From positions 34,574-98,573 of IMG/VR virus record IMGVR_UViG_3300045988_140174: a stretch of DNA of 64,000 nt. The stretch is one strand, 5' to 3'. This DNA comes from a virus. The notes under the pieces were generated by a model that saw only the letters and a list, made by a program, of their open reading frames with translations, ran no database searches and was not told where the DNA came from. Position numbers and translations under genes: made by a program. Below are positions 9,914-27,130 of the stretch, one piece after another; within the stretch, counting starts at the first letter, position 1; the number at the start of each line of letters is the position of its first letter.

Positions 9914-11575
9914 TTAATTCATTGACTCTTTATTTTTTATGGTTTTTTCACTTTTCTAATCATCAGCCTTTTCAGGTCGCCCAGACTATTTTGTTTCAGT
10001 AGTCTGTTTTGTAGTAGTCTATTGATTACTACTTCCTGAATTATTTTGTGTTTTATTCTAATTGTTTGAACCTTTATTACCCAAAACATCTTGACTACTC
10101 ATAGTAGAAGACATTAATGGTGGGATCATAATTTCAGTTAATTTCAACACATCATTTTCAAATACCGCAGTATTTAAAATAAAACTCTAAGAGTGACCAA
10201 GAGCAATTTGAGGTAGCATCTTAGAATAACCAAGTTGCGTTTGTTCTTTATATAATTTTGACATTTCTTTATAATTATATTGTGTAGTTTCAAGCATATA
10301 AAATTTAAAACTATATTTCTTATTATTCGCAACTTTCATCTTTACTATTCTATCAAAAAAAATGTTAAATTGCAACAACAAGTTTCTAACAGTTGATTCA
10401 TCATTAAGGATAGACTTCTCTAATGATAAATTACCATCAGTATTAAATAGATTTTGAGAAATACCTAAATTATTATAAACAGTACGCTCAACTTTTGCTA
10501 AATCATCTGTAGTAGTTGTAGTATTTTTATCTGATAAATCAATAGATTGAACATCAGTAAATGTTGTTAAAACATCAACACCAATAGCTCTTGATAACAT
10601 AGCAACAGCATTATTATGTATATCACGAGATTCATCAATATCAAATATTAAATCACCATTTTTATCCATGGGAAGTTTTTGAACAATAATTTTTAGCAAC
10701 TTCTACATTTGTTTTCTGCGGTCTAAATCTTGAGCAGCATCTAAATCCATAAGAGCAGGAATAGAATTAATAAATGGTGGAGTATCGCTACCATTAAAAT
10801 TAAATTTCACACTTAATTCTGGAGATAGTAAATACCAACTTCCACTATAATCTCCCTTAATATCAGGAAGTAATTTTCCTTTCTTATATAAAACATATCC
10901 GCGCTAAAATTCTTCGGGGAATAATTTTAATACGCGCATACGATAATTAGGATCTGGAAACTAATCAAAAAACCGCATATCAAACTCAATTGCTGGCATA
11001 CCAGCCACAAAGTATCTAGAACGGCAATAGCTAGCAGGCAATTCTTGTAGCATTAAACTATTTGCAGATTGCACTATATATCCATAATAGCAACCATTTT
11101 TCATAATACTTTGAGCAATATCACCGCAGATTTTTTTAATATAAGTATTATCTAAGTAATTTAATAACTTTGAAAAATCTTTTAAAACTTTTTCATCTTT
11201 TACCGTATCATCTAAAATTTCTGGAGCGACATACCAATCATATCTATACAAATAAGCAAAATAATTACATACTCGCTCATAAATGCCGCTAATATCATAA
11301 AATAAATTAGAAATTCTACGCATTTCAACAATATCACGATTTATCATAGCTCGTAATACATCATTTTTAGTGACCATGCGACATGGTCCACGACGATTAG
11401 GATATAGTCGAGCGAATGACCCTAAATCTAATACAGCATCATCTAATGTTTGAACCCCAACTTTTATCTTACGATATTCTGTTGGATCAGCAGTTCGATA
11501 ATCACTTGTTCCATTGCTGATATTAAATCCTTTGGAGTGGATGATTTCCTAACGTGATAATTCTTTAGTATCCAA
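9914..11575 (-). CDS. portal-protein candidate, about 553 aa, 3 in-frame TAG
   Basis: RBS AAGGAGGTGG + TTG start at 11575; includes track ORFs 10961..11377 and 10187..10699 in frame; located right after terminase; size typical of portal. Confidence 0.5.
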
Positions 11576-11587
11576 AATTCCACCTCC

Positions 11588-11944
11588 TTAATATCCAGCT
11601 AATTGCATTATATAATCATATGTAATAAGATTTTCATCTGTATAAGGAATCTCTATTAATTTAAAATCATGTAAAGCGCAAAAACGTCGTTTTTGATTAT
11701 CATTATATTGTTGTTGATATAAACCTTTTTTACCACCAAATTTCGCGCTAGGCTCATAGTGCTATTTACCCTAATATTCAATAATAAAATCAATTCTACC
11801 ATCATCATCAAAAACGACAAAATCGAAACGTAAGGGTCTACCACTTGGTGCCTTCAAATCTGGAAAAATATATTCCATCTTAAATGGTAATTCAGCTTGT
11901 CGCAAAATTTCTTCAATTTTAATTTCGCCTCTAGACGCTCTCAT
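11588..11944 (-). CDS. small PD-(D/E)xK-like endonuclease (homing-endonuclease-like), 118 aa, 2 in-frame TAG
   Basis: motif RFDFVVFDDDGRIDFIIEY*GK*HY...IEIPY, paralogous to the C-terminus of 40812..41741; lies between terminase and portal genes. Confidence 0.55.
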
Positions 11945-11954
11945 AATTACCTCC

Positions 11955-13688
11955 TCAATTCAAGAAACACCAATCTTTAGCATTAAACTTTTTACGTTTC
12001 TTCTTTTTATCTTCTTCTAATTTTAAATAATATAGTCCATATTCAAAAGCAGAAAATTTATCTTTTCGGATACTTTTATTTGCTTGCTTCAGGATAATAT
12101 TTACTCCTTCAGTTTCTTCACGTAAATTCATCATTTCTTCTTTTAATATGGAAGTTAATGTAAATGGTTTTAATTCTTCTGCCCTCTATTCTGGAGTCAT
12201 AGTTTGACCTTTCTTTTTAGCAAGAAGTTTATTTTTTGCTACGCGCTCATCAATTAAAAATTTCACTTTTCCAGAAGCAAGTTGTGATTTAGCAATCGCG
12301 TGGGCCTCTGTGTTGAGTGGCGCATTAGCTTTTATAATATACATAGCATCTAATACTGTATTAGATGTTTTATATTTTTTATAAAATAAATCATCGTCAT
12401 TAACAACACCAAAATCAGGGAAAATTTCATTGGTTTCAGGGTCAATCTACGTCTTAACCATATAATCAATTAAACCAATTCCTAAACCATTACCATCAAT
12501 TACAATTCTATCAGCATTATATTTATAATATAATTTTTTTAATTTAATAGTTTGGTCTTCAAAATGTTCATCAGATAATGTATATATATTTACTAAACTT
12601 TTAATTGAACCACCTTGTGATTGTGGAGTTACTTTAAATACACAAATAACTGAATCGCATCCTTTACGACCAACATCGACAGCAAGTACATAAGATGCTA
12701 ATTTTGAATTACGCCCGGATGCTTCATATTCAGGCTAATTTAATATTCTATTTCTATCAAATATTTCAGCATTAAAAAATGCATCTTCTACTGTGCCAGA
12801 CCATTTACTTTCATACTCTCGGTCAAATGAACTTTCATTGAACGTTCCGTCCATTTTTAAGTCTTTAATAAAATTCGCATCTAACAATTTCATTAAAACA
12901 GGAATACGATAAGTACCACCCATAATAATAGATTGCTAAGGTTTAACAATCTCCCAAACTAATAATTGGATTAATTTATCATAGGGGAAAGTATTTTTAT
13001 ATCCAGCAGTAGTAATATAAATTTGAGATTTATTAAGAGTTTCATCAGGTTGAGTAGTACCATCCATACACATACGAGAAATATTCATTGTAGGAATAAT
13101 AACTTGTGATAAAATATCGCCATCAACGCCAACACACTCTTCAATTAAACCACCATGGCGACGTTTACCACGAGAAGACTCTCTCGCGGCAATATTATCA
13201 AAATATGAACCATTTTTAAATACATATTTAACATAATCCTTACCTTCAAGTGTCTAACCACGGCGCCAATCTATTTCTTTCTAAAATGCAGGAATAAGAG
13301 TACAAATTTCTTGAACTTTTTCTTTTACAATTCCAGCCGCTTGTTCTTTACCACCAGAAGTAATAAATAATTTACATCTGGGGTATAAAATCGCACGACA
13401 CATTAAGACCATCATTGACAAAAAAGATTTTGAATAAGCACGAGGGAATACAGCATAAATATATTTATGACGCATCGCAGCGCGCAAAAAGATTCTCTAA
13501 TAAAAATAGAGTTTAAAATGTTGAGGGCCGCCATCAGGTCCTGCCATAAAGTCGATAAACATATCTGGATATTCTCTCCAAAAGGCTATGTACTGTCTTG
13601 CTTCTGGTATAATCGCACGAAGACGGTCCTCTGAAATTCCAATCTTTTTACGCTTCTAAGATAAATCAAGTAAATCCTATAAAGCCAT
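11955..13688 (-). CDS. terL: terminase large subunit, 577 aa, about 10 in-frame TAG
   Basis: N-terminal ATPase region (CKLFITSGGKEQAAGIV) and RNaseH-like nuclease region (LAVDVGRKGCDSVICVFKV...VIDGNGLGIGLIDYM); track ORFs 13281..13487 and 12735..12923 share the frame; ends TGA. Confidence 0.85.
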
Positions 13689-13689
13689 A

Positions 13690-14886
13690 TTATCCTTCTA
13701 AATTCCTTAAAGTCTGAGCGTCTATTTCAGACTCTTCCTCAAGGAAATCATTATATTCAATTAAATCTTCATCTTTAAGATGATCGATTTCCTCCATCGT
13801 TAAATCTTCTTCAATATCTTGGTCTTCTTCTTTATTTTCTTCTTCTTGCATTTTCTTAATAGCCCCTTCAATGAGATTACCTAAATTCATCTCTTCGGTG
13901 ACTAATGTGTGTGTATAGTTCTTTAAATCTTGTAAAGTTTCATCAACTTTATCTTTTGGACCTTCTGTATAATAACGAGGAATAAATCCTTCAGTTTCAC
14001 ACATGGCCACTAATTCTCCAATAGAATCAAATGCTTCTCCTGTATCTGCTTTGTTTTGAGCGGCGGTGAAATTACCTGATTTCATTAGACTATCATAAAC
14101 CTTGCTCATCTTTTGGAAACCTTCGATATCACCAATATCGATCAACTAGTTTGCTTTTAAGGATGTCTTACAAATTAATTTTAATGTATCAATATGACCA
14201 GCGCCACGGATATCATAAGAACTCATCATTTCTTCATAGAGTTGCTCTAGTTTAACCCATTCTTCGGGTTTATATGCTTTACCCCACTTCATACGAAGAT
14301 ATAAAATATCTTCTTCTGTTAAATCGAGGTCATCTGCTGGGTCATGTTCAATACCATTCTATTGATCAAAATAATCATCACCATCTCTAAAACGTTCTGG
14401 TAATTCAGGAGTGTAAGGTTTTAATTCTTCTTCTGGAATAGCGACAGTAGATTTAGCAATAGCTGTTGCTATTTGCTGGGCATCATAGCCTTGTCGTTTC
14501 ATAGTTTGTTCTAATTTATTATTAGCCACTTCCTATAAAAACTCAGAATCTTTCCATCGATAATCTCTATATTGTTTAAGTTTCATTTTGGACAAATATC
14601 TACCTAAAATACTCATACCAGTTAATTTAGATTTATCTTGTCCATATTTTACCATTAATTTACTCCACTCATCTGGAACATAAGGTACATCAATTTCTTG
14701 TAGAATCCACATATAAGTTTCTGGATTCCAATTATCTACAAGCATTGTAATACATTTTTTACATTGAGGGAGTTTTCCATCATTTGGATATTTTTCTAAA
14801 TTATTAGATGTATAAAACTGGTCAGCGCCCATAGTTCTATTACATCGTTCGCAATAATATACTTTTTTATCATTATCTACAGTCAT
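13690..14886 (-). CDS. zinc-ribbon protein with acidic C-terminus, terminase small subunit candidate, 398 aa, 2 in-frame TAG
   Basis: immediately upstream of terL; N-terminal CERC...CKKC; track ORFs 14533..14886 and 13690..14145 joined in frame. Confidence 0.4.
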
Positions 14887-14928
14887 AATTTTCCTCCTTA
14901 TATCTATCCAATAACAGGCATCTCAAAA

Positions 14929-15993
14929 TTATAACTGTTTGCCCTTGTTTTTAGCATTACGGCATTTTTTACAAATACTATAATAACCATCTTTGCTAGT
15001 TTTATTTTTGCTAAAATATTTATTATGTGCTAATTTAATTTGCCCACAGCGACTACATTTTTTATATTTACCTTTTGCTTTATGTAAATAATAATCATAT
15101 AGGTATTGGTCTTCAGCCGCAGAGGCGATTAATTTTGGAATTTTATTGCGCCATAAACTAGAAATATATTCTAAACTATGAGTAATATTAAATTCCTCTT
15201 GAATTTTCTTTTGAATGTCTATATTCTATAATCCATCAATTTTATATTCAACTATTCTATCATATAAGGGATAATCTTTAAGAGCAATGGTACATAAATT
15301 ATCGAAATCTTCCATAATATACCATAAATCTCTTTCAAAATCTCCCCAACTATCTTGCTTTAAACGAGAATAATTACATAAAATTGCAGAACATACTCTA
15401 GGGTCTAAGAGTGAAACGCCATCCGGAATTGGATAACCATCATCATCAAAAATACAAGTCGTGTCCTCTAATGGAATAAAATTTCTTGAACGAGTAATTT
15501 TAGTCATAACAATTGGACGACGAACTGCATTTTTAATAACATACTAATCTTTACGCATTTCAATAATAGCACGTTTAATTATAAATGCCTCGCGTCCTTC
15601 GCTAACTCGTAATTTGGCTTCCCAAGTAGTAATGGCGTCTCTTAACTATTTTAAATGAGGTATTTCTTCTATATCTTTTTTAGTAATTGTAATTTTAGGC
15701 TAAAATATTGTATTTTTATTTTCAGTAATTAAATTATAAATTCCATCTTCGCCATTCTCAAATTGGGAAACAAGACCTTCAAAAGATGTTTCACGTTTAT
15801 TAACTGTTGCCATACGATTATCAGTTAATAATTTACGCTCCTTTTTCTCTTGTTTCTCCATACAAAGAATGATATAGTCCCCTAATATTTCTAAATATCG
15901 AGGAGAGGGGTCTGGGGTTTCCTCTAATATTTTCTTGACTAATTCATTTCTTTCTTCTGGAGTTTGTAAGGAATAATCTAATTTTATCATCAT
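14929..15993 (-). CDS. hypothetical protein with C-terminal zinc ribbon (CSRCGQ...CKKC), 354 aa, 3 in-frame TAG
   Basis: track ORFs 15700..15993 and 15226..15507 in same frame, continued through TAGs to TAA at 14929. Confidence 0.5.
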
Positions 15994-16018
15994 TACCTCC
16001 AGATTTTTTTACGTCTTC

Positions 16019-17832: not shown

Positions 17833-17912
17833 TTCTTGAAGCATTGGCATTAATAGGATTAATTCTATTTTTTCCTATCTGGTTTTTTGGTAGAAATAAA
17901 ATTAAAAAGTAA
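17829..17912 (+). CDS. 27-aa hydrophobic peptide
   Basis: overlapping start (ATGA); single transmembrane-like segment. Confidence 0.3.
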   Translation: MILEALALIGLILFFPIWFFGRNKIKK

Positions 17913-18206
17913 TTCTTTTTACCGTTATCTGAATTGAAAAAAGTTTTGGTGAGAGTTTGTACCAGCCAAACAAAAAAATAAAAAGCAAAAAAAATTTTTT
18001 CCCGAAACCCACCCCCCGGTCGGTTTTTATCTGAGAAAAAATCTGAACACTATCGAGACCTTCTTGGGCTTGGCGCACGCGGAAAGGCTAGACCATCCCC
18101 AATACAGCCCCTCAACTCGCAGGACCGCGAATGGCTGTCGCGGTCCTCATTCGCAATAAATACAAACTCCACAAAAAATCTCTCGCAAATTTGTGTATTC
18201 TGCTAA

Positions 18207-18235
18207 TAGACACGCATCCTGAAACGTGGTATAAT
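18207..18235 (+). promoter_or_regulatory. promoter (TAGACA-17-TGGTATAAT)
   Basis: extended -10 and spacing; 26 nt upstream of RBS AAAGGAGG. Confidence 0.55.
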
Positions 18236-18260
18236 AGCACTATCAAAGGAGGAATAGTCT

Positions 18261-18356
18261 ATGTCTATCATCTACAAAGTCGTGCGCTTCATCACCGCGG
18301 TCGCTGTTGTCGCGGGCACTGGCATCTTGATGTGCCTCATCTGCCTCCCTCACTGA
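18261..18356 (+). CDS. 31-aa hydrophobic peptide (MSIIYKVVRFITAVAVVAGTGILMCLICLPH)
   Basis: own promoter, perfect RBS AAAGGAGG, own terminator overlapping the stop codon. Confidence 0.6.
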   Translation: MSIIYKVVRFITAVAVVAGTGILMCLICLPH

Positions 18357-18368
18357 GGGAGGTTTTTT
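18344..18368 (+). terminator. intrinsic terminator
   Basis: CCTCCCTCACTGAGGGAGG + TTTTTT. Confidence 0.75.
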
Positions 18369-18380
18369 GTTGCCCTAAGA

Positions 18381-19170
18381 TTGTTAAAAATTTAACGATG
18401 TAGCAAGATTGTTAAAAGATTAACAATGTAGTGAGATTGTTAAAAATTTAACAATCACTCAACCAAGAGAGGACAAGGACACGCACGGCACAGTGGACAA
18501 GGCAGAGCGAGCCAATGAGCGAGCGACCAACAGACAAAGAGAACAACACACAACACAACACAATGATAGATACATTGTTAATGTATTAACAATGTAGTAT
18601 AGTAGTATGGTATGGTAGTAGGTGGGGTAGGGGTGGGCTATGGGTAGTGGGTGGTGGAGGAGAGTAGACCAACAATAAGAGAATAGAACGCGCTTCCCAC
18701 CGGTCGGCTCACCAGGAACCGCGCACAACAAATCTAATGTAAGTATTCTATTTCTCTTTTGGGTTCATCATCGTTAACGGCCCTAATCGCCCAAGAATAA
18801 GCCCTCGCACAATTGCCAAACAACACAGCGGGGCAGGCGCTGAACCGCGCGCATCCCGCAACGCACAACTCTCACAGAGGAGCGAGCAAGATTGTTAAAA
18901 GTTTAACAATGTGAGAGCCAAGAGCAAGAGAGTAAAGAGTGCGCTTGCACAGGTAGCAAGGAGGATACACACGGCACAGTTGATACATTCGCTGACCGAG
19001 CAAGATTGTTAAAAAATTCACAATGTGTGGATGTGGTGAAGTCGCTGTTTAATTGTTAAAAATTTCACATTCGCTGTTGGATGCCGAACACGGTCGCAAC
19101 GCCCCAGACTTCACCACAGTAAAGTGGTAAAGAAAAAAAATTGCAAATGCGATTGTTAAAATAATCACAA
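18381..19170. repeat. array of 8 copies of the 18-bp palindrome TTGTTAAAA-N-TTTAACAA (ninth copy at 20313..20330)
   Basis: sites at about 18381, 18409, 18438, 18576, 18893, 19007, 19053 and 19154; dyad symmetry suggests binding sites for a dimeric protein. Confidence 0.7.
18459..18668. other. strand-asymmetric low-complexity region: T-depleted stretch, (CA)n-like run, C-free G-rich stretch with G-quadruplex potential
   Basis: 18459..18563 has only 2 T; 18594..18668 is composed of G/T/A; GGTGGGGTAGGGGTGGGCTATGGGTAGTGGGTGGTGG. Confidence 0.6.
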
Positions 19171-19212
19171 TCTCTGTCCCGAAAATAAATAGGTTATTTT
19201 TGAAAAAACCTC

Positions 19213-19241
19213 TTGACAAATTGCCCTATGTGTGCTACAAT
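19213..19241 (+). promoter_or_regulatory. promoter TTGACA-17-TGCTACAAT
   Basis: consensus -35, TG-extended -10. Confidence 0.6.
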
Positions 19242-19271
19242 GATTACAGTAAAACAAAGGAGGACGATACA

Positions 19272-19508
19272 ATGTCTAACATCTATGGAGTCTGCTACAC
19301 CACCAAAGAGCCTGTTGTCTACAACAGAGGGACACAGTGGGAGAAAACCTGTTCCGATTTCCTGTTCGTTCAGGCAAACAAGGACAATGGCACAGAGCTG
19401 GTGGACAAACTGAACGCTATGCTCGCCGAGGGTGTGGAAAAGTACGAACTGCTGGACATGACCAAGATTGACCATTTCTATCTTGACAAGTCCGAGGAAA
19501 TGTATTAA
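19272..19508 (+). CDS. hypothetical protein, 78 aa
   Basis: RBS AAGGAGGACGATACA-ATG; track ORF 19200 starts upstream of the promoter, so the internal Met is used. Confidence 0.6.
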   Translation: MSNIYGVCYTTKEPVVYNRGTQWEKTCSDFLFVQANKDNGTELVDKLNAMLAEGVEKYELLDMTKIDHFYLDKSEEMY

Positions 19509-19521
19509 GGAGGAACTGACA

Positions 19522-19710
19522 ATGACACGCACTATCGCTAATACCTACATCTGTATCAACAACGAGGGACAGACGCTCTCCATCATCGCCCGCACGGGCA
19601 ACGAAGCCCACAACATCGCAATAGGGTTTTTGCGGAAAGCCAACATCGTGAGCGTTCGTCGTGTATTCAAGTCCGGCAAGCTGGGCAAGGAAATTCTGAA
19701 AATTAAATAA
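19522..19710 (+). CDS. hypothetical protein, 62 aa
   Basis: RBS AAGGAGGAACTGACA-ATG. Confidence 0.6.
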   Translation: MTRTIANTYICINNEGQTLSIIARTGNEAHNIAIGFLRKANIVSVRRVFKSGKLGKEILKIK

Positions 19711-19716
19711 AATAAA

Positions 19717-19740
19717 CAGGGCGCAAGCCCTGTTTTTTTT
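19717..19740 (+). terminator. intrinsic terminator (GCAA tetraloop)
   Basis: CAGGGCGCAAGCCCTG + T8; identical hairpin repeated at 19992. Confidence 0.8.
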
Positions 19741-19750
19741 GAAAAAACTA

Positions 19751-19779
19751 TTGACAAATCCCGAAATAGGTGTTATACT
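19751..19779 (+). promoter_or_regulatory. promoter TTGACA-17-TATACT
   Basis: consensus spacing. Confidence 0.6.
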
Positions 19780-19811
19780 AAATACAGAAATTAAGAAATG
19801 AGGTAAACACC

Positions 19812-19991
19812 ATGAACACTAATTCTAATCTTTCCAACACCGCTTTCCAGTCCCTGCTCCGCACAATCCGCAACTATCGCGAAACATCTCGCCCGTTCTC
19901 CGCAATCACTACTTACAATGAGTTTTTTGACCGCATGAGCCAGGAACAGCGGGAAGAAGCGTATGAAGCACTCACCGGTAAATTGAATTAA
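19812..19991 (+). CDS. hypothetical protein, 59 aa
   Basis: RBS GAAATGAGGTAAACACC-ATG; below the ORF-track size cutoff. Confidence 0.5.
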   Translation: MNTNSNLSNTAFQSLLRTIRNYRETSRPFSAITTYNEFFDRMSQEQREEAYEALTGKLN

Positions 19992-20018
19992 CAGGGCGCA
20001 AGCCCTGTTATTTTTTTT
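19992..20018 (+). terminator. intrinsic terminator
   Basis: CAGGGCGCAAGCCCTG + T-run. Confidence 0.8.
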
Positions 20019-20038
20019 ATAAAATGCGAAAAAAACTA

Positions 20039-20067
20039 TTGACAAACACAAATAAGCGTGTTATAAT
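20039..20067 (+). promoter_or_regulatory. promoter TTGACA-17-TATAAT
   Basis: perfect consensus hexamers. Confidence 0.65.
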
Positions 20068-20099
20068 GAATACAGAAATTAAGAAATGAGGTACACAAA

Positions 20100-20288
20100 A
20101 TGAAGAACATCTATGAAATCGAGAACATCATCGACGAAATCCCCGCTGATGACTGGGCTGGCATTTGTAATTTGATGGACTACTACTATCAGTCGAATTT
20201 CTCCGCTGACGCTGAACAGAGACTGGCAAGGGCAATCGCTCCTTACGGCTTGACCGCAGAGGAAATCCTGACCTGGGACGCTGAATAA
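20100..20288 (+). CDS. hypothetical protein, 62 aa
   Basis: RBS GAAATGAGGT; same leader (AATACAGAAATTAAGAAATGAGGT) as gene 19812. Confidence 0.6.
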   Translation: MKNIYEIENIIDEIPADDWAGICNLMDYYYQSNFSADAEQRLARAIAPYGLTAEEILTWDAE

Positions 20289-20325
20289 GCGTCCTATTTT
20301 TTTGCTGTTGGATTGTTAAAATTTT

Positions 20326-20398
20326 AATGAGCATCGTCGCGCTCATCAGGCACGTGGCGCCCCGAAATATTATACCACAGCAGTCCACCAGTTGTCAA
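20326..20398 (-). promoter_or_regulatory. antisense-oriented promoter (TTGACA-18-TGGTATAAT on minus strand) firing toward a hairpin + T-run (20326..20345)
   Basis: rc of 20369..20398 gives a consensus promoter; ATGAGC-N8-GCTCAT + TAAAATTTT downstream on the minus strand. Confidence 0.5.
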
Positions 20399-20456
20399 GA
20401 GAAAAATGCGAAAATTTCGCACAAAATTTGCTATCCCGATTTGTATAGTTTGCCAA

Positions 20457-20485
20457 TAGACAAAATAAAATAAGCGTGTTATAAT
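20457..20485 (+). promoter_or_regulatory. promoter TAGACA-17-TGTTATAAT
   Basis: extended -10. Confidence 0.5.
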
Positions 20486-20518
20486 GAATACAACAAAACA
20501 ACAAAGGAGATACACAAC

Positions 20519-20827
20519 ATGATTAACATTCGTTCTATCCGCAAGCTGGGCAACAATGACGGGCTGACCCTCAAAATGGGCAAAAAGGTAAACTATAAAT
20601 CCGGCTGGCAGGTTGCCACAGAGGGCATCGAGTGCAAGACCGCACAGGAAGCCATTGACGCGGTGAGAGACTACGGCGGAAATTGTGGCGTGTGGTTCAG
20701 CGAGGGCATTTACTACATCGACAAGAGCAAGCGCGTGGCGACAAAGTGTGAAGCTATGGAAATCGGCAAAGCGTGCAATCAAATTTCCGTGCTGAAATGG
20801 GCGACTATGACGCTTGCCTACTGTTAA
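20519..20827 (+). CDS. hypothetical protein, 102 aa
   Basis: RBS AAAGGAGATACACAAC-ATG. Confidence 0.65.
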   Translation: MINIRSIRKLGNNDGLTLKMGKKVNYKSGWQVATEGIECKTAQEAIDAVRDYGGNCGVWFSEGIYYIDKSKRVATKCEAMEIGKACNQISVLKWATMTLAYC

Positions 20828-20832
20828 AATAA

Positions 20833-20858
20833 TAGGGCGAAAGCCCTATTTTTTTTTT
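20833..20858 (+). terminator. intrinsic terminator (GAAA tetraloop)
   Basis: TAGGGCGAAAGCCCTA + T10. Confidence 0.8.
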
Positions 20859-20879
20859 GAAAAAATTTTGAAAAAGGTA

Positions 20880-20908
20880 TTGACAAATCCCGAAATAGGT
20901 GCTATAAT
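20880..20908 (+). promoter_or_regulatory. promoter TTGACA-17-TATAAT
   Basis: consensus. Confidence 0.65.
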
Positions 20909-20939
20909 TAAACCATCAAATGAAGGAGGTCGCAAGACT

Positions 20940-21104
20940 ATGATGACTACTGTAAAGACTCCTGACGGCGTGCCCCCTGTTAAGCCTCTGTCCTATGTGC
21001 TGGGCGATGACTGGACGTACCTTTACAGCGATAGCTGGAAAGGCGTTGAATTCGACGTTCACGCGTGTATGAACGGCGAGGTTGTCGCAGTAGTCGAGGG
21101 TTAA
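20940..21104 (+). CDS. hypothetical protein, 54 aa
   Basis: RBS AAGGAGGTCGCAAGACT-ATG; the track ORF N-terminus would include the promoter. Confidence 0.55.
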   Translation: MMTTVKTPDGVPPVKPLSYVLGDDWTYLYSDSWKGVEFDVHACMNGEVVAVVEG

Positions 21105-21132
21105 TCCCTCGGTTATTTTTTTTATTTTTTTT
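21095..21132 (+). terminator. intrinsic terminator overlapping the stop codon
   Basis: CGAGGGTTAATCCCTCG + T-rich run. Confidence 0.6.
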
Positions 21133-21142
21133 GAAAAAACTA

Positions 21143-21171
21143 TTGACAAAATGCGCCTACGGTGCTATAAT
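21143..21171 (+). promoter_or_regulatory. promoter TTGACA-17-TATAAT
   Basis: consensus. Confidence 0.65.
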
Positions 21172-21201
21172 TAAACCATCAAAAGAGAGGAGCTAAACGC
21201 T

Positions 21202-21393
21202 ATGACAAATTTTGAACAGTATCTCGAAAACCTGATGGGTATGAAGAAAGCGGAAATCATCAACGAGGGCATCACCTGGGGCATCTGGGCGAACACCGAG
21301 GGCAACAAAGCCGAGCTGATGAAATGGAAAAAAGTGCTGCTGGCGCGTTCCCTTGCCGATAGGCTGGAAAGACTGGAAAGGCGGGGCTACTAA
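21202..21393 (+). CDS. hypothetical protein, 63 aa
   Basis: RBS AGAGAGGAGC. Confidence 0.6.
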   Translation: MTNFEQYLENLMGMKKAEIINEGITWGIWANTEGNKAELMKWKKVLLARSLADRLERLERRGY

Positions 21394-21395
21394 GA

Positions 21396-21420
21396 CAAGG
21401 GCGAAAGCCCTTGTTTTTTT
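21396..21420 (+). terminator. intrinsic terminator
   Basis: CAAGGGCGAAAGCCCTTG + T7. Confidence 0.8.
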
Positions 21421-21472
21421 ATATATGGCATTATGCCCATAATTCGGTTGAAAATTTTGGTGATTTTGCCTA

Positions 21473-21567
21473 TTGACATTCTGCCCCATTTGTGTTATAC
21501 TCGGTCGCGCGCCCACGGCCCTGATGCGCGGAAATTCCATTATACCACAGCCCAGCCAATTTGTCAA
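21473..21567. promoter_or_regulatory. composite element: plus promoter (TTGACA 21473-17-TATACT 21496), GC hairpin (21502..21531), face-to-face minus promoter (TTGACA-17-TGGTATAAT, 21539..21567 rc)
   Basis: both promoters have consensus hexamers and 17-bp spacers; they converge on a 30-nt GC stem-loop. Confidence 0.6.
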
Positions 21568-21626
21568 GCATTTTGTGTTCGGTATTTTCAACAATTTTTT
21601 GTCCCGAAATTTGTGCAATTTGACGG

Positions 21627-21655
21627 TTGACAACGCCCAGTAGGTATGCTATACT
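21627..21655 (+). promoter_or_regulatory. proximal promoter TTGACA-17-TGCTATACT
   Basis: extended -10. Confidence 0.6.
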
Positions 21656-21685
21656 TATACCATCAATTAAAGGAGGTCATTCACA

Positions 21686-21861
21686 ATGGCTACTATCGCA
21701 ATCCTCGCAATCCTCGCCCTCGCTGGCTTCGCTGGCGTTCAGTGTGTCGGCGGGGATATGGTTTATCGTCAGACGCACGACTGGCACTTCCTCGTTGGCT
21801 CTATCCTATATGGCGTTGCCTGTATCGGTCTGATGCGCTTCGTGTTCAATATGGGGTGGTA
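21686..21861 (+). CDS. small membrane protein, 58 aa, 2 transmembrane helices
   Basis: RBS AAAGGAGGTCATTCACA-ATG. Confidence 0.6.
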
Positions 21862-21863
21862 AT

Positions 21864-22187
21864 ATGGAAAACTACACTATGTCGAACCATCTGACAGAGG
21901 AGCGGGCTAACCGGCTCGCCCTCTTACAGGAATACCTCGGATATTCCGACCGCGTGATGATTGAGGTCATCGACCAACGCCAAACCGCCCGTCTGCGTTT
22001 GCTCTCGACTGGCATTATCTTGGTGCTGGACTTATATGAGAATTTCATCATCACCGCATACCCCGCAACCTTTGAACGGGCTGTCGCTATATACAAGAGT
22101 GCAGGCAAAAACCGCTTACCTCAACAGTTGGTCAAGCGCATCCGCAAGAATGAGGAACGCCACCCCGAATTTTATGTAGTAAAGTAG
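21864..22187 (+). CDS. hypothetical protein, 107 aa
   Basis: start overlaps the upstream stop (TAATATG). Confidence 0.6.
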   Translation: MENYTMSNHLTEERANRLALLQEYLGYSDRVMIEVIDQRQTARLRLLSTGIILVLDLYENFIITAYPATFERAVAIYKSAGKNRLPQQLVKRIRKNEERHPEFYVVK

Positions 22188-22193
22188 AAAATT

Positions 22194-22227
22194 GGGGCTT
22201 GACAACAAGCCCCATTTCTGCTATAAT
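22194..22227 (+). promoter_or_regulatory. promoter whose -35 (TTGACA 22199) sits in the loop of hairpin GGGGCTTG-ACAA-CAAGCCCC; -10 TATAAT 22222
   Basis: hairpin immediately 3' of the upstream gene; -10 follows after an 18-nt spacer. Confidence 0.55.
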
Positions 22228-22258
22228 GAGTATAACAAAACAAGGGAGGACGAAAAAA

Positions 22259-22588
22259 ATGTCTGATGTAATTATCGCTGGTTTGCTTATGGCTGGTCTG
22301 GTGGGTCTGCCTATTGGCTTGCTTTTTGCCATAGGGAGTGATACATGGTGGGGCAAGGTGCTGTCGTTCGTTATCTTTTGTTCCATCTTCTTCGGCTTCG
22401 GTGCTATGATAGGACAAGACCACGTCAACGATTGCAACACTTTCAACAATGGCGTGTGCGTTCAGTGTGGCGGTGAATACCGCATGAGTGGCGCAACTCG
22501 CACCCGTATGGGAAGCGAAACATTTTACTACACCTGTGAAAACTGCGGTTGGACTATTGAGACTAACGGTCTGATGAACAAACACTAA
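22259..22588 (+). CDS. membrane protein with C-terminal zinc ribbon, 109 aa
   Basis: RBS AAGGGAGGACG; two transmembrane helices, then CVQCGG...CENCG. Confidence 0.6.
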   Translation: MSDVIIAGLLMAGLVGLPIGLLFAIGSDTWWGKVLSFVIFCSIFFGFGAMIGQDHVNDCNTFNNGVCVQCGGEYRMSGATRTRMGSETFYYTCENCGWTIETNGLMNKH

Positions 22589-22601
22589 GGAGGGAAACAA
22601 A

Positions 22602-22829
22602 ATGGAAATTATTAAAGCCCCTATCTATGTCAAAATGACAGAGGAGGAACGGAAAACCCTGCGTGACGCCTATGACATTCTGAATGAATTGTATGACATT
22701 ATCCACGATAATGACTGCGAGTATGTGAGCGATACTTGCGGAAATGGCTATGACAGAGTGGACGTCGCGCTTACGGCTAATGTGCTTCAAATGCTTGCCC
22801 CCACTGAAAAAGTGGAAATCGGCAAATGA
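22602..22829 (+). CDS. hypothetical protein, 75 aa (paralog of 22845..23075)
   Basis: RBS AAGGAGGGAAACAAA-ATG. Confidence 0.6.
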   Translation: MEIIKAPIYVKMTEEERKTLRDAYDILNELYDIIHDNDCEYVSDTCGNGYDRVDVALTANVLQMLAPTEKVEIGK

Positions 22830-22844
22830 AAGGAGGTAAAACAA

Positions 22845-23075
22845 ATGAACATCATTACCTCAAATGTTCAGGTTCAACTCACCCAAGAGGAAAAGGACAA
22901 ACTTCAAGACGCCCGCGAGGTCATTTCTCACCTGTTTGATTTGATGTATGACTACGAACAAGAATACGCTATTTCCAACATCGGCGAAGAGTATTCTATG
23001 AGCCAAGTCCGTGATACCTCAAACCTGCTGGCCGCGCTTATCGGGTCTGATAAAATGCGGTTAGAAAATAAATAA
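22845..23075 (+). CDS. hypothetical protein, 76 aa (paralog of 22602..22829)
   Basis: RBS AAAGGAGGTAAAACAA-ATG; shared pattern ..T.EE...L.DA.....L..L.D.D.EY. Confidence 0.6.
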   Translation: MNIITSNVQVQLTQEEKDKLQDAREVISHLFDLMYDYEQEYAISNIGEEYSMSQVRDTSNLLAALIGSDKMRLENK

Positions 23076-23080
23076 AAAAA

Positions 23081-23105
23081 TGTGGGAGAAATCCCACATT
23101 TTTTA
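23081..23105 (+). terminator. intrinsic terminator
   Basis: TGTGGGAGAAATCCCACA + T6, abutting the next -35. Confidence 0.75.
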
Positions 23106-23134
23106 TTGACAACAACCAAGAGGTGTGGTATAAT
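23106..23134 (+). promoter_or_regulatory. promoter TTGACA-17-TGGTATAAT
   Basis: consensus. Confidence 0.65.
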
Positions 23135-23164
23135 AAATACATCAAATAAAGGAGGATACCCCGA

Positions 23165-23371
23165 ATGACTATTTTTGAAATCAGAACTGAACTGGCCGAC
23201 CGTTATTGCGTAAAGCCTGACAAGGTAAGATGTTCCAACTGTGAATATTGGGGTTATAACCGCGGTAAGGTAATGAACAGTATGGGCGAGAGTAAATGTA
23301 TGAAGCGAAAGAACGAGCGCACCTGGTGTCGTCAATTCTGCCGGGGTTTCGTTCCAAAATCGGGAAAGTAA
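23165..23371 (+). CDS. Cys-rich small protein, 68 aa
   Basis: RBS AAAGGAGGATACCCCGA-ATG; CSNCEYW...CMKRK..WCRQFC. Confidence 0.6.
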   Translation: MTIFEIRTELADRYCVKPDKVRCSNCEYWGYNRGKVMNSMGESKCMKRKNERTWCRQFCRGFVPKSGK

Positions 23372-23376
23372 ATCAT

Positions 23377-23412
23377 TTGGGCTGGATGAACAAAAATCCA
23401 GCCCAATTTTTG
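23377..23412 (+). terminator. intrinsic terminator
   Basis: TTGGGCTGGATGAACAAAAATCCAGCCCAA + T-run. Confidence 0.75.
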
Positions 23413-23425
23413 TATAATTTTCCAC

Positions 23426-23479
23426 TTGACATTTTCGGCCGCGCGCTCACGATTGTGGCGCCCGGCATTTTTGTCAATA
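23426..23479. promoter_or_regulatory. degenerate copy of the promoter/hairpin/antisense-promoter element (TTGACA 23426; hairpin about 23436..23466; inverted TTGACA 23471..23479 without a good -10)
   Basis: hairpin loop TCACGATTGTG is shared with the copy at 31537..31561. Confidence 0.45.
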
Positions 23480-23525
23480 GGCATACTTCACAAATTTTTC
23501 GCCGCAATTTTGTGCATTTTGACGA

Positions 23526-23554
23526 TTGACTTCTATCCCGTAATACGGTATAAT
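23526..23554 (+). promoter_or_regulatory. proximal promoter TTGACT-17-TATAAT
   Basis: leader GGTATAATGGCTATACTGAAACAAGGAGGTAAG is shared with the 27195 gene. Confidence 0.6.
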
Positions 23555-23583
23555 GGCTATACTGAAACAAGGAGGTAAGAACA

Positions 23584-23802
23584 ATGGAGTTGAAGAAAGC
23601 GTATCAGATGGTGTTCAGCGACCTGCGCGAATGCCCTATGTTCCAAGGGCGTTATGATGCCATCAACGGCAATCCCTATTATATGTCCGGCATTGAGACG
23701 GTTATGGAAGTCATCGCCAATCGCGCCTATAATGATGATTTCGCCGAGCGGTTCTCCAATGAATTTACCGACAATATGTTAAGGAGTAGAAAAAATGTCT
23801 GA
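23584..23802 (+). CDS. hypothetical protein, 72 aa
   Basis: RBS AAGGAGGTAAGAACA-ATG. Confidence 0.65.
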   Translation: MELKKAYQMVFSDLRECPMFQGRYDAINGNPYYMSGIETVMEVIANRAYNDDFAERFSNEFTDNMLRSRKNV

Positions 23803-24166
23803 TTTTCAGAAGCAAACCCTCAAAAGGTATGGGCACAATTTCCTCATTGTGTGCGGTTTCGGTTTGCTGGTGTATGGTATGATAAAGTCCACACTGGTGC
23901 TATACGCAACAGTTGCGATTATGGTACTAACTATCGTAGGCGCGTGTATATGGTCTATGGTAGACTCTGTTCGCTGGGACTGGCGGTTGCGCGGTAAGCT
24001 AACAGAGAGCGAGTATAAGGCATACCAGTCCTGTGAAAGAGTTTTCGGCTGGCGTGATGATAAATACCTGCCGACTGAGGAACAAATTTACGCTATGGCG
24101 ATGGAAACATCTATTGACAAAGATGTGCTATGGAGTATGTATAACAAACTGACGGAGGGGCATTAA
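23795..24166 (+). CDS. membrane protein, 123 aa
   Basis: overlaps the upstream gene by 8 nt; two transmembrane helices. Confidence 0.6.
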   Translation: MSDFQKQTLKRYGHNFLIVCGFGLLVYGMIKSTLVLYATVAIMVLTIVGACIWSMVDSVRWDWRLRGKLTESEYKAYQSCERVFGWRDDKYLPTEEQIYAMAMETSIDKDVLWSMYNKLTEGH

Positions 24167-24252
24167 CGCCCCTCTTGTTGGGTTTAGTTCTGACTAACTA
24201 CACGGAACAAAAAATTAGTCCTGTGAGAATTTAACTACAACAAAAATTTTTC

Positions 24253-24281
24253 TTGACATTTTCAATTAAATGTGTTATTAT
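24253..24281 (+). promoter_or_regulatory. promoter TTGACA-17-TATTAT
   Basis: consensus -35. Confidence 0.5.
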
Positions 24282-24312
24282 TATAATAGAAATTAAGAAA
24301 GGAATTGATACT

Positions 24313-24513
24313 ATGAACATCCCCTCTAAGCTGAAACAAGTTGCTAATGAGTTGGAGCAACTGTCAATCGAAATCGCCGCAGAAAAGAAAAACCTGTCCA
24401 ACAGTGAGGACAAGCAAGCCGCTCAAAATTTGAGCGATGATTTGTTTGAAATCCAGTCCCATTTACGTACATCTATGTACTGGGTGGCGGAAGCTATGTT
24501 TGGGGAGGAGTGA
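24313..24513 (+). CDS. hypothetical protein, 66 aa
   Basis: RBS GAAAGGAATTGATACT-ATG; this leader sequence recurs at 29013 and 30202. Confidence 0.6.
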   Translation: MNIPSKLKQVANELEQLSIEIAAEKKNLSNSEDKQAAQNLSDDLFEIQSHLRTSMYWVAEAMFGEE

Positions 24514-24989
24514 TGACTATGAATGCTATTATTCTATTCATTGTTTGCACCGCTGTGAATGTGGTGCTGTCCACCATCAAATCCATTTTGACTGTCAAAG
24601 GCAATAAATGGGTTGCCGCTGGTATCAATGCGCTGACTTATGGCTTCTATTCCTATGTCATTATCCTGACCAACATTGACGGCGTTTCTACGCTGGCAAA
24701 GATGGGCATTACCGCCGCCTGTAATTTCGTTGGTGTGCTGGCGGTCAAATGGGTTGAGGAGCTGGCGCGCAAAGAAAAACTGTGGAAGATTGAAATGACT
24801 GTTCCCACTAAATACCGAGCCGCTGTGGATTTTGACCTGCGAGACATTCCACATTCATACATTGAGATTAGCAACAAACACACGCTATTCAATTTCTATT
24901 GTGCCACGCAAGCCGAGAGCAAAAAGGTCAAGGACATTGTGGCGCAGTATGGCGCAAAATATTTCGTAGCAGAAAGCAAAAATTTATAA
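24510..24989 (+). CDS. membrane protein, 159 aa (N-terminal 3 transmembrane helices)
   Basis: RBS GGGGAGGAG; overlapping start. Confidence 0.6.
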   Translation: MMTMNAIILFIVCTAVNVVLSTIKSILTVKGNKWVAAGINALTYGFYSYVIILTNIDGVSTLAKMGITAACNFVGVLAVKWVEELARKEKLWKIEMTVPTKYRAAVDFDLRDIPHSYIEISNKHTLFNFYCATQAESKKVKDIVAQYGAKYFVAESKNL

Positions 24990-24997
24990 AATAGGGG

Positions 24998-25026
24998 TTG
25001 ACAAATCAGTCCCTCTGTGTTAGAAT
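24998..25026 (+). promoter_or_regulatory. promoter TTGACA-17-TGTTAGAAT
   Basis: extended -10. Confidence 0.55.
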
Positions 25027-25056
25027 GGTATCATCAAATAAGGGAGGACAACAAAA

Positions 25057-25206
25057 ATGGAAATGATTAAAGTTTTCAATGACCACACCGGCGAAATCCT
25101 CGAAAAGACGTTCGTAGACCCCGCAGACGCGGACGACTTCGAGTTCATTCTCGACTTCCTTGAAGCGAGATACGAACGCTACCACAACGGCGAACAAATC
25201 TATTAA
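25057..25206 (+). CDS. acidic small protein, 49 aa
   Basis: RBS AAGGGAGGACAACAAAA-ATG. Confidence 0.55.
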   Translation: MEMIKVFNDHTGEILEKTFVDPADADDFEFILDFLEARYERYHNGEQIY

Positions 25207-25219
25207 GGAGGTTGCGACA

Positions 25220-25417
25220 ATGGAGACCAAAGATGTGTACTACAACGTTGAGTGGTGGGGCATAACTACTTGGGGCGAACGCTTCACTAATAGCGAGTAG
25301 TTCAAGAACGAAAACGAAACACTGTCGTTCATCGCAAATGACCTGGCAAATGACCCGCTTGTTCGCGGAGCGACCTTCACCACACACAAAACCATCGTAT
25401 TTAAGAGAGGAGAATAA
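25220..25417 (+). CDS. hypothetical protein, 65 aa if the in-frame TAG at 25298..25300 is read through (26 aa if it is a stop)
   Basis: RBS AAGGAGGTTGCGACA-ATG; the frame stays open after the TAG and ends at TAA overlapping the next RBS. Confidence 0.4.
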
Positions 25418-25418
25418 A

Positions 25419-25625
25419 ATGATTACTATTCTGATAACGGTTATTGCCCTCGGCATTTCGTTCCTGTTTACTGCTGGGCTGGTCTGGCTTCTCTGCTGGC
25501 TTCTCCCTGCTATCGGCATCGCGTCCATCGGCTCTATCGCCATCGTGTTTTCGTGGAAACTGGCGTTGGTGATTTGGCTCATTATCGCGCTCCTGCGCTC
25601 CATCTTCGTTAGCGTTAAGAGTTAA
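25419..25625 (+). CDS. small membrane protein, 68 aa
   Basis: RBS AAGAGAGGAGAATAAA-ATG; entirely hydrophobic. Confidence 0.6.
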   Translation: MITILITVIALGISFLFTAGLVWLLCWLLPAIGIASIGSIAIVFSWKLALVIWLIIALLRSIFVSVKS

Positions 25626-25673
25626 TTGAAAAATCTCCCAAATTTGGGAAATTTTTTTTGTCTATTTTACCTA

Positions 25674-25769
25674 TTGACAAACACCCCCCATTTGTGGTAT
25701 ACTCGGCCGAGCGCCCACGGCCCTGGCGCTCGAAATTTCTATTATACACCCTGCCAGCAATTTTGTCAA
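25674..25769. promoter_or_regulatory. composite element: plus promoter (TTGACA 25674-17-TATACT 25698), hairpin (25706..25732), face-to-face minus promoter (25741..25769 rc, TTGACA-17-TATAAT)
   Basis: consensus hexamers on both strands; minus-promoter spacer identical to the copy at 28167..28195. Confidence 0.6.
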
Positions 25770-25849
25770 TAGATAAATTGAACAAATTTACCCAAGCGCG
25801 CATCCCGAAAGTTTGTGCAAAATGACCAAGAGCAAAACCGAAAAAACTG

Positions 25850-25878
25850 TTGACAAATTGCGTTTTATCCTGTATAAT
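25850..25878 (+). promoter_or_regulatory. proximal promoter TTGACA-17-TATAAT
   Basis: consensus. Confidence 0.65.
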
Positions 25879-25909
25879 AGCATTACAATCAAGAAAGGAA
25901 GTTGATACA

Positions 25910-26356
25910 ATGACTATTTATCTGGACATGGACGGCACTATCGCGGGGATTTACAACGACCCTAACTGGTTGGCAAAGCTGGAAGCCTCTGACGTGAGTG
26001 TATATGCGGACGCCTGCCCGCTTGTTCACTTCTCCACCCTCGCCCGCTATCTGAACCGCTTACAGGCGCGGGGCTACCGCATCGGCATCATTAGCTGGCT
26101 GTCCAAGAGCGGAACGGATAAGTTCAACGCCGAGGTTGCCGAGGTCAAGCGCGAATGGCTGGCAAAGCATCTCCACAGCGTTCAGTGGGACGAAATTCAT
26201 ATTGTCCCCTATGGCGTTCCCAAGTCCAACTGCGCGACCTGCCCCAACGCGATTTTGTTCGATGACGAACAGCGCAACCTCAACGAGTGGATGGCAAACA
26301 CCCATAATATGGCGTACAATGCTGACCTCCTGATGGAAATTTTGCGAAACCTGTAA
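25910..26356 (+). CDS. HAD-superfamily phosphatase, probable 5'(3')-deoxyribonucleotidase-like, 148 aa
   Basis: motif I YLDMDGTIA (DxDGT) and C-terminal ILFDDE; RBS AGAAAGGAAGTTGATACA-ATG. Confidence 0.65.
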   Translation: MTIYLDMDGTIAGIYNDPNWLAKLEASDVSVYADACPLVHFSTLARYLNRLQARGYRIGIISWLSKSGTDKFNAEVAEVKREWLAKHLHSVQWDEIHIVPYGVPKSNCATCPNAILFDDEQRNLNEWMANTHNMAYNADLLMEILRNL

Positions 26357-26362
26357 AAAAAA

Positions 26363-26404
26363 TAGCAGACAGGGGTTGACAACCTCGCCCCTGTCTGCTA
26401 TAAT
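26363..26404 (+). promoter_or_regulatory. promoter with the -35 inside a hairpin loop (AGCAGACAGGGG-TTGACAACCTCG-CCCCTGTCTGCT) then TATAAT
   Basis: 12-bp stem; TTGACA 26376; TATAAT 26399. Confidence 0.6.
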
Positions 26405-26416
26405 ATGTAATGTAAT

Positions 26417-26462
26417 TAAGGTATGGGAAACGATGGTAAGCCCAACCAAGAGAAAAGGAGAA
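26417..26462 (+). promoter_or_regulatory. conserved 5' leader motif (copy 1)
   Basis: AAGGTATGGGAAACGATGGTAAGCCCAACCAAGAGAAAAGGAGAAA; near-identical copy at 27470..27520; contains a short upstream ORF. Confidence 0.5.
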
Positions 26463-26469
26463 ATGAACA

Positions 26470-27126: not shown

Positions 27127-27130
27127 GAAT

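Follow-up and report, generated by a model that had tools for sequence, protein, structure and literature searches.

Conserved base-depleted blocks among Rex-type palindromes in the predicted early leader of an uncultured gut phage

The leader and its two base-depleted blocks

The stretch analysed here (64,000 nt, positions 34,574 to 98,573 of IMG/VR record IMGVR_UViG_3300045988_140174; called "the window" below) is phage DNA, as indicated by a virion-protein PHROG match at 1050–2126, and it carries a block of small co-oriented genes whose architecture is that of an early, host-takeover module predicted to be transcribed by the host polymerase. At the head of this early block, between a first transcription unit that is terminated (promoter P1) and the next promoter (P2), about 840 nt (18369–19212) have no convincing open reading frame (ORF) and hold two blocks of very unusual base composition, the first depleted of T and the second of C, together with all eight members of a family of palindromes, one of which separates the two blocks (Table 1). 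We find that the T-depleted block, this palindrome and the C-depleted block form a module that is real, conserved, non-coding and unstructured. The initial annotation of the locus missed both that the palindromes are consensus Rex operators and that the stretch is the leader of an early block.

Table 1. Features of the leader and the start of the early block (positions in the window; Rex boxes are predicted operators).
Feature	Position	Strand	Basis or remarks
Leader motif A8T6-CCCGAAACCCACCCCCC	17987–18017	+	At the junction of AT-rich and GC-richer DNA; unique in the window
Promoter P1, TAGACA-17-TATAAT, TG extension	18207–18235	+	Promoter scan, 11/12
31-codon hydrophobic ORF	18261–18356	+	MSIIYKVVRFITAVAVVAGTGILMCLICLPH, preceded by AAAGGAGG; sequence and ORF list
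Intrinsic terminator, 9-bp GC-rich stem then T6	18343–18368	+	Ends the P1 unit; terminator scan; conserved in the alignment of relatives
Rex boxes 1–3	18380–18399, 18408–18427, 18436–18455		Tandem, 28-bp spacing, 0–1 mismatch
T-depleted A/C/G block	18459–18563	+	Composition, alignment, homologues in L046 and (weaker) L049
CCAAGAG	18463–18469		Within the T-depleted block
Motif m1, GACACGCACGGCACAGTGGACA	18478–18499		Within the T-depleted block
GAGCGAGC, two copies	18505–18512, 18517–18524		Within the T-depleted block
CA-rich repeat	18544–18563		End of the T-depleted block
Most conserved core	18564–18615	.	Rex box 4 and the overlapping weak promoter-like site
Rex box 4	18574–18593		Extended palindrome TACATTGTTAA-TGTA-TTAACAATGTA
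C-depleted G/T/A block	18594–18668	+	Composition, G4Hunter; G-quadruplex motif in the distal part
Rex boxes 5–8	18891–18910, 19005–19024, 19052–19071, 19152–19171		Three with the TTCACAA-type half-site
Second m1 copy	18964–18987		Among Rex boxes 5–8
Promoter P2, TTGACA-17-TACAAT	19213–19241	+	Promoter scan
First 78-codon early gene	19272–19508	+	Translation; follows P2

Both blocks exceed chance expectation. The T-depleted block (105 nt) has the composition A47 C29 G26 T3; the depletion is as strong as first described, although the count of only two T holds if the block is taken to begin at GAGAGG, and there are three over its full length. Likewise the C-depleted block (75 nt; A16 C1 G38 T20, 51% G) is G-rich as described, but one C interrupts what was reported as a run of G, T and A only. 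When the surrounding 16-kb GC-richer block was shuffled 300 times with its dinucleotides preserved, the lowest count of T per 105 nt averaged 11.4 and was never below 7 (observed, 3), and the minimum number of C per 75 nt averaged 5.4 and was never below 2 (observed, 1); binomial probabilities multiplied by the number of positions are 2e-5 for the T depletion and 2e-3 for the C depletion. The initial judgement that such composition is improbable by chance is borne out by these values, although the 50% GC context against which it was made is roughly right only locally (45%), the window as a whole having 38% GC. The T-depleted block is the only 105-nt stretch of the window with three T or fewer, and it contains the longest and the third longest T-free runs (47 nt, 18517–18563, and 34 nt, 18460–18493, respectively). 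The C depletion is milder, and AT-rich C-free runs are frequent elsewhere in the window; a C-poor stretch with 51% G occurs this once. The GC skew switches sharply and locally across the two blocks. Farther upstream, 5' of the G-rich block, two C-run-rich stretches lie on the opposite strand, at 17993–18021 (G-quadruplex (G4) score by G4Hunter −1.64) and 18092–18117 (−1.52), so that the leader turns from C-rich to G-rich along the + strand.

The region was recovered from independent ENA, Logan, IMG/VR and JGI assemblies, which yielded 18 distinct natural variants of the window lineage (relatives are designated here by L numbers; pairwise identities and composition ranges are from an alignment of 11 relatives, and G4 and polymorphism counts from the 18 variants). 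The composition is held in all aligned relatives, with 1–3 T per approximately 105 nt in the first block, and 1–5 C and 31–41 G per approximately 75 nt in the second. The most conserved segment is box 4 with its flanks (18564–18610; mean pairwise identity 98%), followed by the T-poor block at 92% and other spacers at 84–95%, and the G-run part of the C-depleted block (18611–18668) is the least conserved at 72%. Within the C-depleted block, the proximal (TAG/TATGG)n part is invariant, and the distal G-run part is hypervariable, with unit-like indels.

This variability bears on the G4 motif that had been noted in the C-depleted block. It is indeed present, and is the sole canonical G4 motif (at least four tracts of three or more G, loops of 1–7 nt) in the 64 kb, lying at 18624–18651 (GGGGTAGGGGTGGGCTATGGGTAGTGGG) under the top G4Hunter score of the window (2.12, at 18608–18657). 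The conservation expected of a functional G4 is not seen: canonical motifs with loops of up to 7 nt are found in just 9 of the 18 variants (15 of them if loops of up to 12 nt are allowed), and L042, L048 and L031 have only three tracts of three or more G. Because the motif is not kept across variants, G4 formation is unlikely to be a selected property; the G4 potential of the G-rich block appears to be incidental or auxiliary, and a G4 motif from a single genome is not to be taken as functional.

The T-poor composition entails that the first block has no sigma-A promoter hexamers, no stop codons on either strand and little self-complementarity. The ORFs listed in the blocks are open because T-free DNA encodes no stop codon on either strand, and indels within the blocks (of 1, 2, 4, 5 nt and other lengths) break every frame across relatives; a protein-coding reading was rejected on both counts. 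Folded as single strands, the T-poor block reaches a minimum free energy of −6.4 kcal/mol and the G-rich block one of −0.1 kcal/mol; because only the palindromes pair, a hairpin joining the blocks was rejected. Searches of the window found nothing in Rfam at gathering score and no tRNA. A motif resembling the FtsK-orienting polar sequences (KOPS-like GGGNAGGG) is present in 11 of the 18 variants, and was set aside as indistinguishable from a generic G-run motif.

Rex-type palindromes and related leaders

The palindromic sites with which the blocks were initially said to be interleaved are in fact an eight-member family. The pattern ATTGTTAA-N4-TTAACAAT is matched with at most two mismatches by eight sites inside 0.8 kb (pattern search) and by none elsewhere in the 64-kb window; when three mismatches are allowed there are 13 matches in the window where 2.1 are expected, and 0 of 100 shuffles reach 13. 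These palindromes match the 18-bp Rex inverted repeat TTGTTAA-N4-TTAACAA or TTGTGAA-N4-TTCACAA, and half-sites of both kinds are used. The Clostridiaceae Rex-box consensus is given as TTGTTAANNNNTTAACAA in those passages of PMC9600882 and PMC5367854 that cite Ravcheev 2012, and the general Gram-positive consensus is TTGTGAANNNNTTCACAA, the binding of Rex to DNA being reduced by NADH (PMC5355995 among others). Judged by their sequence, the palindromes match the Rex operator consensus, and perfect TTGTGAAAAAATTCACAA boxes are present in relatives. No Rex-like gene was seen near the leader, where the only Pfam matches are DUF7352, a weak MazE-like match and YonG_N, so the partner that binds the eight predicted operators is presumably the Rex protein of the host. 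A TnrA/GlnR site was also considered and rejected, its spacing being one nt off (TGTTA-N6-TAACA here, against what we take to be TGTNA-N7-TNACA for those regulators). We found no precedent for Rex boxes or operator decoys in phages in the literature searched.

Box 4, between the two blocks, differs from its neighbours. It alone among the first six boxes has a −10-like hexamer 3' of it at the right distance (as read from the sequence), and its hairpin has a z-score of −4.6. A weak promoter-like site, TTGTTA-17-TATAGT (18575–18603; 9 of 12 positions matched in the promoter scan, a score that is common by chance), overlaps it and is invariant in the lineage. In L045 the centre of box 4 is TACA, where the window has TGTA (18582–18585), so that the centre of the palindrome is flipped, as by inversion. 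Downstream of the module, repeat analysis detected four repeat families across the stretch that holds boxes 5–8 (18891–19171).

Whether similar stretches exist in related phages, a question that the initial annotation raised, can be answered well beyond the close variants. A profile built from the window lineage alone matches the module of L046 in full, from the T-poor block through the palindrome to the G-rich block, with E=4e-9 in 0.73 Mb, in the same orientation and at a similar offset from the leader motif of Table 1. This relative is distant: only a few of its genes can be aligned with those of the window, at 44–68% protein identity (about 44% for early proteins), and its module was not detected by BLASTN. 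The order of sub-motifs is nevertheless kept: ACGCACG..ACAGTG.ACA; AACAACACAC; AATGAT...TACAT; the palindrome; GTATA.TAGTA.GGTA; and GGGTAGTAGGTAGGG. The central palindrome of L046 differs from that of the window, and its module is flanked not by Rex boxes but by LexA-like GAAC-N4-GTTC boxes (which we take to be the Firmicute LexA box), of which it has seven; its first consensus early promoter lies directly 3' of the module. In L049, the T-poor block has a weaker homologue (E=0.04) that adjoins the first early promoter; the −10-like TATAGT of the window could be aligned to this true promoter only ambiguously. Searching with an nhmmer profile of the T-poor block added no lineage to L046 and L049, and a scan of IMG/VR for the T-poor core GCGAGCCANNNAGCGAGCGA gave, beyond the known lineage, only unrelated coding or simple-repeat matches.

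Other relatives carry different arrangements of predicted operators and low-complexity tracts. In L067, a contig binned with an Acutalibacteraceae metagenome-assembled genome, there are 11 Rex boxes; the motif GAYACRCACGG, present twice in the window (at its m1 copies), occurs there four times or more, 3' of a consensus promoter. In the 12.5 kb of L012, Rex boxes number 18 and LexA-like boxes 16, typically in the order LexA box, one or two Rex boxes and then an early promoter just downstream, with boxes often about 20 nt upstream of a −35 hexamer, and L011 (380–1030) has five LexA-like boxes between Rex boxes. In L014 (IMGVR_UViG_3300021400_000347), which also carries Rex boxes and further palindromes, 12 perfect DnaA boxes are grouped in four triplets (2623–2666, 2844–2886, 4074–4117 and 4680–4723). 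L015 has in its leader a run of (ATAATA)n and an A-rich tract poor in T, and L036 has a G-free tract in its own. Arrays of predicted host operators beside early promoters are general in this phage set.

The leader motif itself is common to divergent lineages (L015, L036, L037/L040, L043, L046, L047, L049, L050, L052 and L061) and always lies at the border of the early block; ahead of it are two copies of an approximately 30-nt motif, GTTATYTGAAA..AAAA..TTTGGTG. It has no match in 185,579 species genomes, and it may be a terminus, a pac site or another cis site.

The early block and its phage

The source is an uncultured, abundant gut phage of about 200 kb. Two of its early proteins have identical copies in hundreds of assembly blocks, including human-gut metagenome contigs of 193–200 kb. 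The leader and three large parts of the window were searched as DNA against INPHARED, with no match save 182 nt in two Enterococcus phages, outside the early block and leader. The GC content of the window is about 30% up to 18 kb and 45–50% at 18–34 kb, and the early block is 15–20 GC points above the rest of the genome. This block (18200–33300, + strand, about 15 kb) has about 30 promoters that all point the same way, match TTGACA-17-TATAAT completely or almost so and have TG extensions, and each is accompanied by a small ORF and a terminator; scans found 96 promoter-like sites where 45 are expected and 52 terminator-like sites where 19 are expected. The first early transcription unit encodes nothing but a hydrophobic 31-residue peptide that contains Cys; its ORF has a strong ribosome-binding site, ends in a terminator of its own and is preserved among close relatives. 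A further pair of base-depleted tracts lies where the early block ends on its far side (33330–33460): a (GATGA)-rich stretch poor in C and, after it, 73 nt poor in G (33382–33454), partly complementary to each other. In a comparison of L001–L010 with window positions 24000–33000, strains with identical early proteins differ in whether GIY-YIG and HNH homing-endonuclease genes are present in the early block.

In-frame TAG codons interrupt genes of the AT-rich regions (1–16000 and 33600–36350, − strand), and a helix-turn-helix (HTH) gene at 35407–35970 has several of them. When TAG is read as sense, ORF cover of the late strand rises from 10.3 to 16.2 kb and that of the early block barely changes; since the gain is limited to the late strand, it appears that the late region is TAG-recoded (as in code 15), outside an early block in standard code. 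The tRNA scan found no suppressor tRNA in the window.

A possible regulatory module and its alternatives

We tentatively favour a reading in which the two blocks are the arms of one conserved cis-acting DNA module (T-depleted block, operator palindrome, C-depleted block) that regulates the early leader by way of the host Rex array; we consider this quite possible, if still short of probable. After entry of the phage DNA, host Rex dimers would occupy the eight boxes when the NADH/NAD+ ratio is low and leave them as NADH rises. Their occupancy would gate the leader and the adjacent early promoters, among them the weak promoter-like site over box 4, whose transcription start would fall in the G-rich block, and the onset of the early programme would thereby be tied to the host's metabolic state. 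A further factor would probably bind the sub-motifs of the T-poor block (GAYACRCACGG, CCAAGAG, GAGCGAGC and the CA-repeat), and the G-rich block would be a composition-constrained, slippage-prone flank. A weak Rex-repressible promoter at box 4, starting in the G-rich block, is possible because box 4 has a −10-like hexamer and the surrounding 47 nt are the best conserved. Rex binding, the gating of the early programme and factor binding to the T-poor block are inferences.

Several observations weigh against this proposal. Seven of the eight Rex boxes are clear of any promoter, unlike the classical geometry of repressors, and box 8 stops 41 nt short of the −35 hexamer of P2. The T-poor block, measured from box 3 to box 4, varies from 100 to 109 nt among relatives, so strict helical phasing between these boxes is not kept. 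The polymorphism spectrum of the 18 variants shows no clear avoidance of new T or C: in the T-poor block, C>T changes occur at 7 of 30 C sites and G>A changes at 11 of 26 G sites, a ratio near that of control spacers. The sole hint of a host, Bacillota/Acutalibacteraceae, comes from the binned contig L067. Finally, similar CA(G)-rich tracts in L014, L067 and L019 lie 3' of consensus promoters and would be transcribed (in L014 in the opposite sense).

This last point is among those that speak for the best of the alternatives, that the module is transcribed, as a leader or as a non-coding RNA. Transcription running on from P1, or starting at box 4, would yield a U-poor RNA that is purine- and CA-rich and then G-rich, and that might act as a protein sponge, an RNA G4 or an R-loop. 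The consensus promoter of L067 reads straight into its m1-motif region, the perfect promoter of L014 reads through a 340-nt T-free (CACAGCACAG)n block just 3' of it (1735–2075), and the T-poor tracts of L019 are 5' leaders of early ORFs; in the window itself, the invariance of the promoter-like site at box 4 and the presence of GGA and CA-rich motifs in the module would fit such a transcript. However, a strong conserved terminator separates P1 from the module, no sigma-70-type promoter precedes it in L046 and L049, the transcribed strand of L014 is the complement, and the module has no Rfam match, no stable fold and no conserved G4 motif. The idea of a structured non-coding transcript, offered in the initial annotation, finds little encouragement in these results, and we regard any form of the RNA explanation as unlikely.

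Another possibility is that the blocks are functionless filler, microsatellite-like DNA made by slippage between operators and tolerated because only spacing matters. The unit-like indels that make the G-rich block the least conserved segment, the internal short repeats, the polymorphism spectrum without clear avoidance of T or C, and the different fillers of other lineages (for example (ATAATA)n and G-free tracts) are all as expected of such DNA. Against it, the T-poor block is 92% identical within the lineage and still recognisable, with its sub-motif order preserved, in L046, whose early proteins are only about 44% identical; we consider filler distinctly unlikely.

The dyad-symmetric composition, in which a CA-rich strand and a TG- and G-rich strand flank a palindrome (there are self-matches in reverse orientation), is also what might be expected of a replication origin primed by transcription or an R-loop, or assisted by G4, with the palindrome between strands of opposite skew and the G-rich non-template strand stabilising the primer hybrid. 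The sharp local switch in GC skew is in keeping with this, as are the DnaA boxes of L014 and a 130-nt A/T-only stretch at the equivalent position in the L015 lineage, which could be an unwinding element. In the window, however, there is no DnaA box with one mismatch or fewer at 17900–19200 (an origin of the DnaA-box or DnaA-trio kind was rejected for the lack of DnaA boxes in the leader), no initiator gene adjoins, the block is G-rich rather than AT-rich, its G-tracts are not conserved, and the promoter that would feed it is only putative. A better candidate lies at 34850–35540, where GGTTGT/ACAACC is present in 37 copies in 720 bp, as against 17 in the other 63 kb, many of them as ACAACCA-N3-TGGTTGT palindromes. 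This iteron-like array, on the far side of the early block, adjoins the TAG-containing HTH gene mentioned above, whose product is like sigma-70 region 4, and it is a candidate replication origin or second regulatory hub. An origin at the two blocks is, in our estimate, quite improbable.

We would say much the same, and with as little conviction in its favour, of a packaging or terminus element (a pac site or concatemer junction near the left end or the border of a terminal repeat, after the model of the T7 concatemer junction with its low-complexity repeats). The unique cross-lineage leader motif marks the border of the early block 450 nt upstream, and early blocks with host promoters are at the first-entering end in T5, T7 and SPO1. 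On the other hand, contig ends cluster at the tandem Rex boxes as would repeat-induced assembly breaks, short contigs run through the leader motif without ending there, and the central palindrome changes identity between lineages. Contig ends were rejected as genome termini on this ground and because some apparent ends are the borders of storage chunks; termini and terminal repeats are not readable from collapsed metagenome assemblies. Last, an assembly artefact or non-natural insert, a suggestion of the initial annotation for which nothing speaks but the unusual composition, is hardly conceivable, given natural variation (the 18 variants) recovered across many independent samples, assemblers and collections.

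The regulatory reading of the module can be widened to the phage family. It may be that these phages couple the start of their early programme to global regulators of the host through arrays of consensus operators (Rex here, LexA-like and DnaA in relatives) placed around a conserved low-complexity module, be it in order to sense the NADH/NAD+ ratio (and the SOS or replication state), to titrate repressors as decoys, or to hold or pull the entering DNA; this more speculative proposal we think doubtful, though not far-fetched. Operator arrays around a conserved module at the head of an early programme seem to be undescribed. Should the sensing, decoy or DNA-entry idea be true, a new kind of phage cis-regulatory element would have the T-poor/G-rich module as its conserved core. 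If Rex does bind the leader, a lytic gut phage could gauge the redox and energy status of the anaerobic cell it has entered before early commitment, or would sequester the repressor, and this would offer a simple, testable route by which phage genomes become dormant, or "hibernate", in starved gut bacteria. The module and the unique leader motif could also aid the annotation of early regions and the orientation of genomes in these widespread uncultured phages.

Comparison with known systems places these features among several familiar ones. G4 and R-loop elements are known from mitochondrial conserved sequence block II (CSBII) and from the ColE1 primer region. The leader resembles these in having a G-run-rich, C-free strand just 3' of a promoter-like site, but here the motif is not conserved in close relatives, the promoter is putative and priming is not in evidence. 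The host-takeover or early modules of SPO1, T7 and T5 have many strong host-type promoters and small genes, and the approximately 15 kb of co-oriented small genes of the early block, each with a consensus sigma-70-type promoter and a terminator, are laid out similarly; there is no relation at the sequence level, and the block differs in being GC-richer and in standard code next to an apparently TAG-recoded late region. The chromosomal Rex operators of Clostridia and other Gram-positive bacteria have the identical 18-bp consensus TTGTTAANNNNTTAACAA and also use TTGTGAA/TTCACAA half-sites, but they are single or paired and overlap fermentation or redox promoters, whereas the phage leader has eight in 0.8 kb, mostly off promoters.

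The closest likeness is with T5-like phages, whose untranslated repeat regions in the first-step-transfer DNA contain repeats, palindromes and eight DnaA boxes and are better conserved than the neighbouring ORFs; a role in the injection stop has been proposed for them, as a hypothesis only (Davison, bioRxiv 10.1101/866236). The T5 injection-stop (iss) region differs from our leader in its host factor (DnaA in T5; Rex here, and LexA-like or DnaA in relatives) and in its place, at the distal end of the T5 terminal repeat rather than the head of the early block. Base-depleted blocks are undescribed in T5, and paired DnaA boxes of the T5 type were not found in the window leader. A terminal repeat and two-step injection are features of T5, and the likeness here is one of sequence layout. 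In that layout the two have in common a large non-coding stretch in an early block served by the host polymerase, dense repeats, inverted repeats and palindromes, about eight sites for a host DNA-binding protein, and a conservation that exceeds that of nearby small early ORFs; if the proposed role of Rex is correct, such leaders would be a new class of host-factor site arrays in phages, to stand beside the DnaA boxes of T5.

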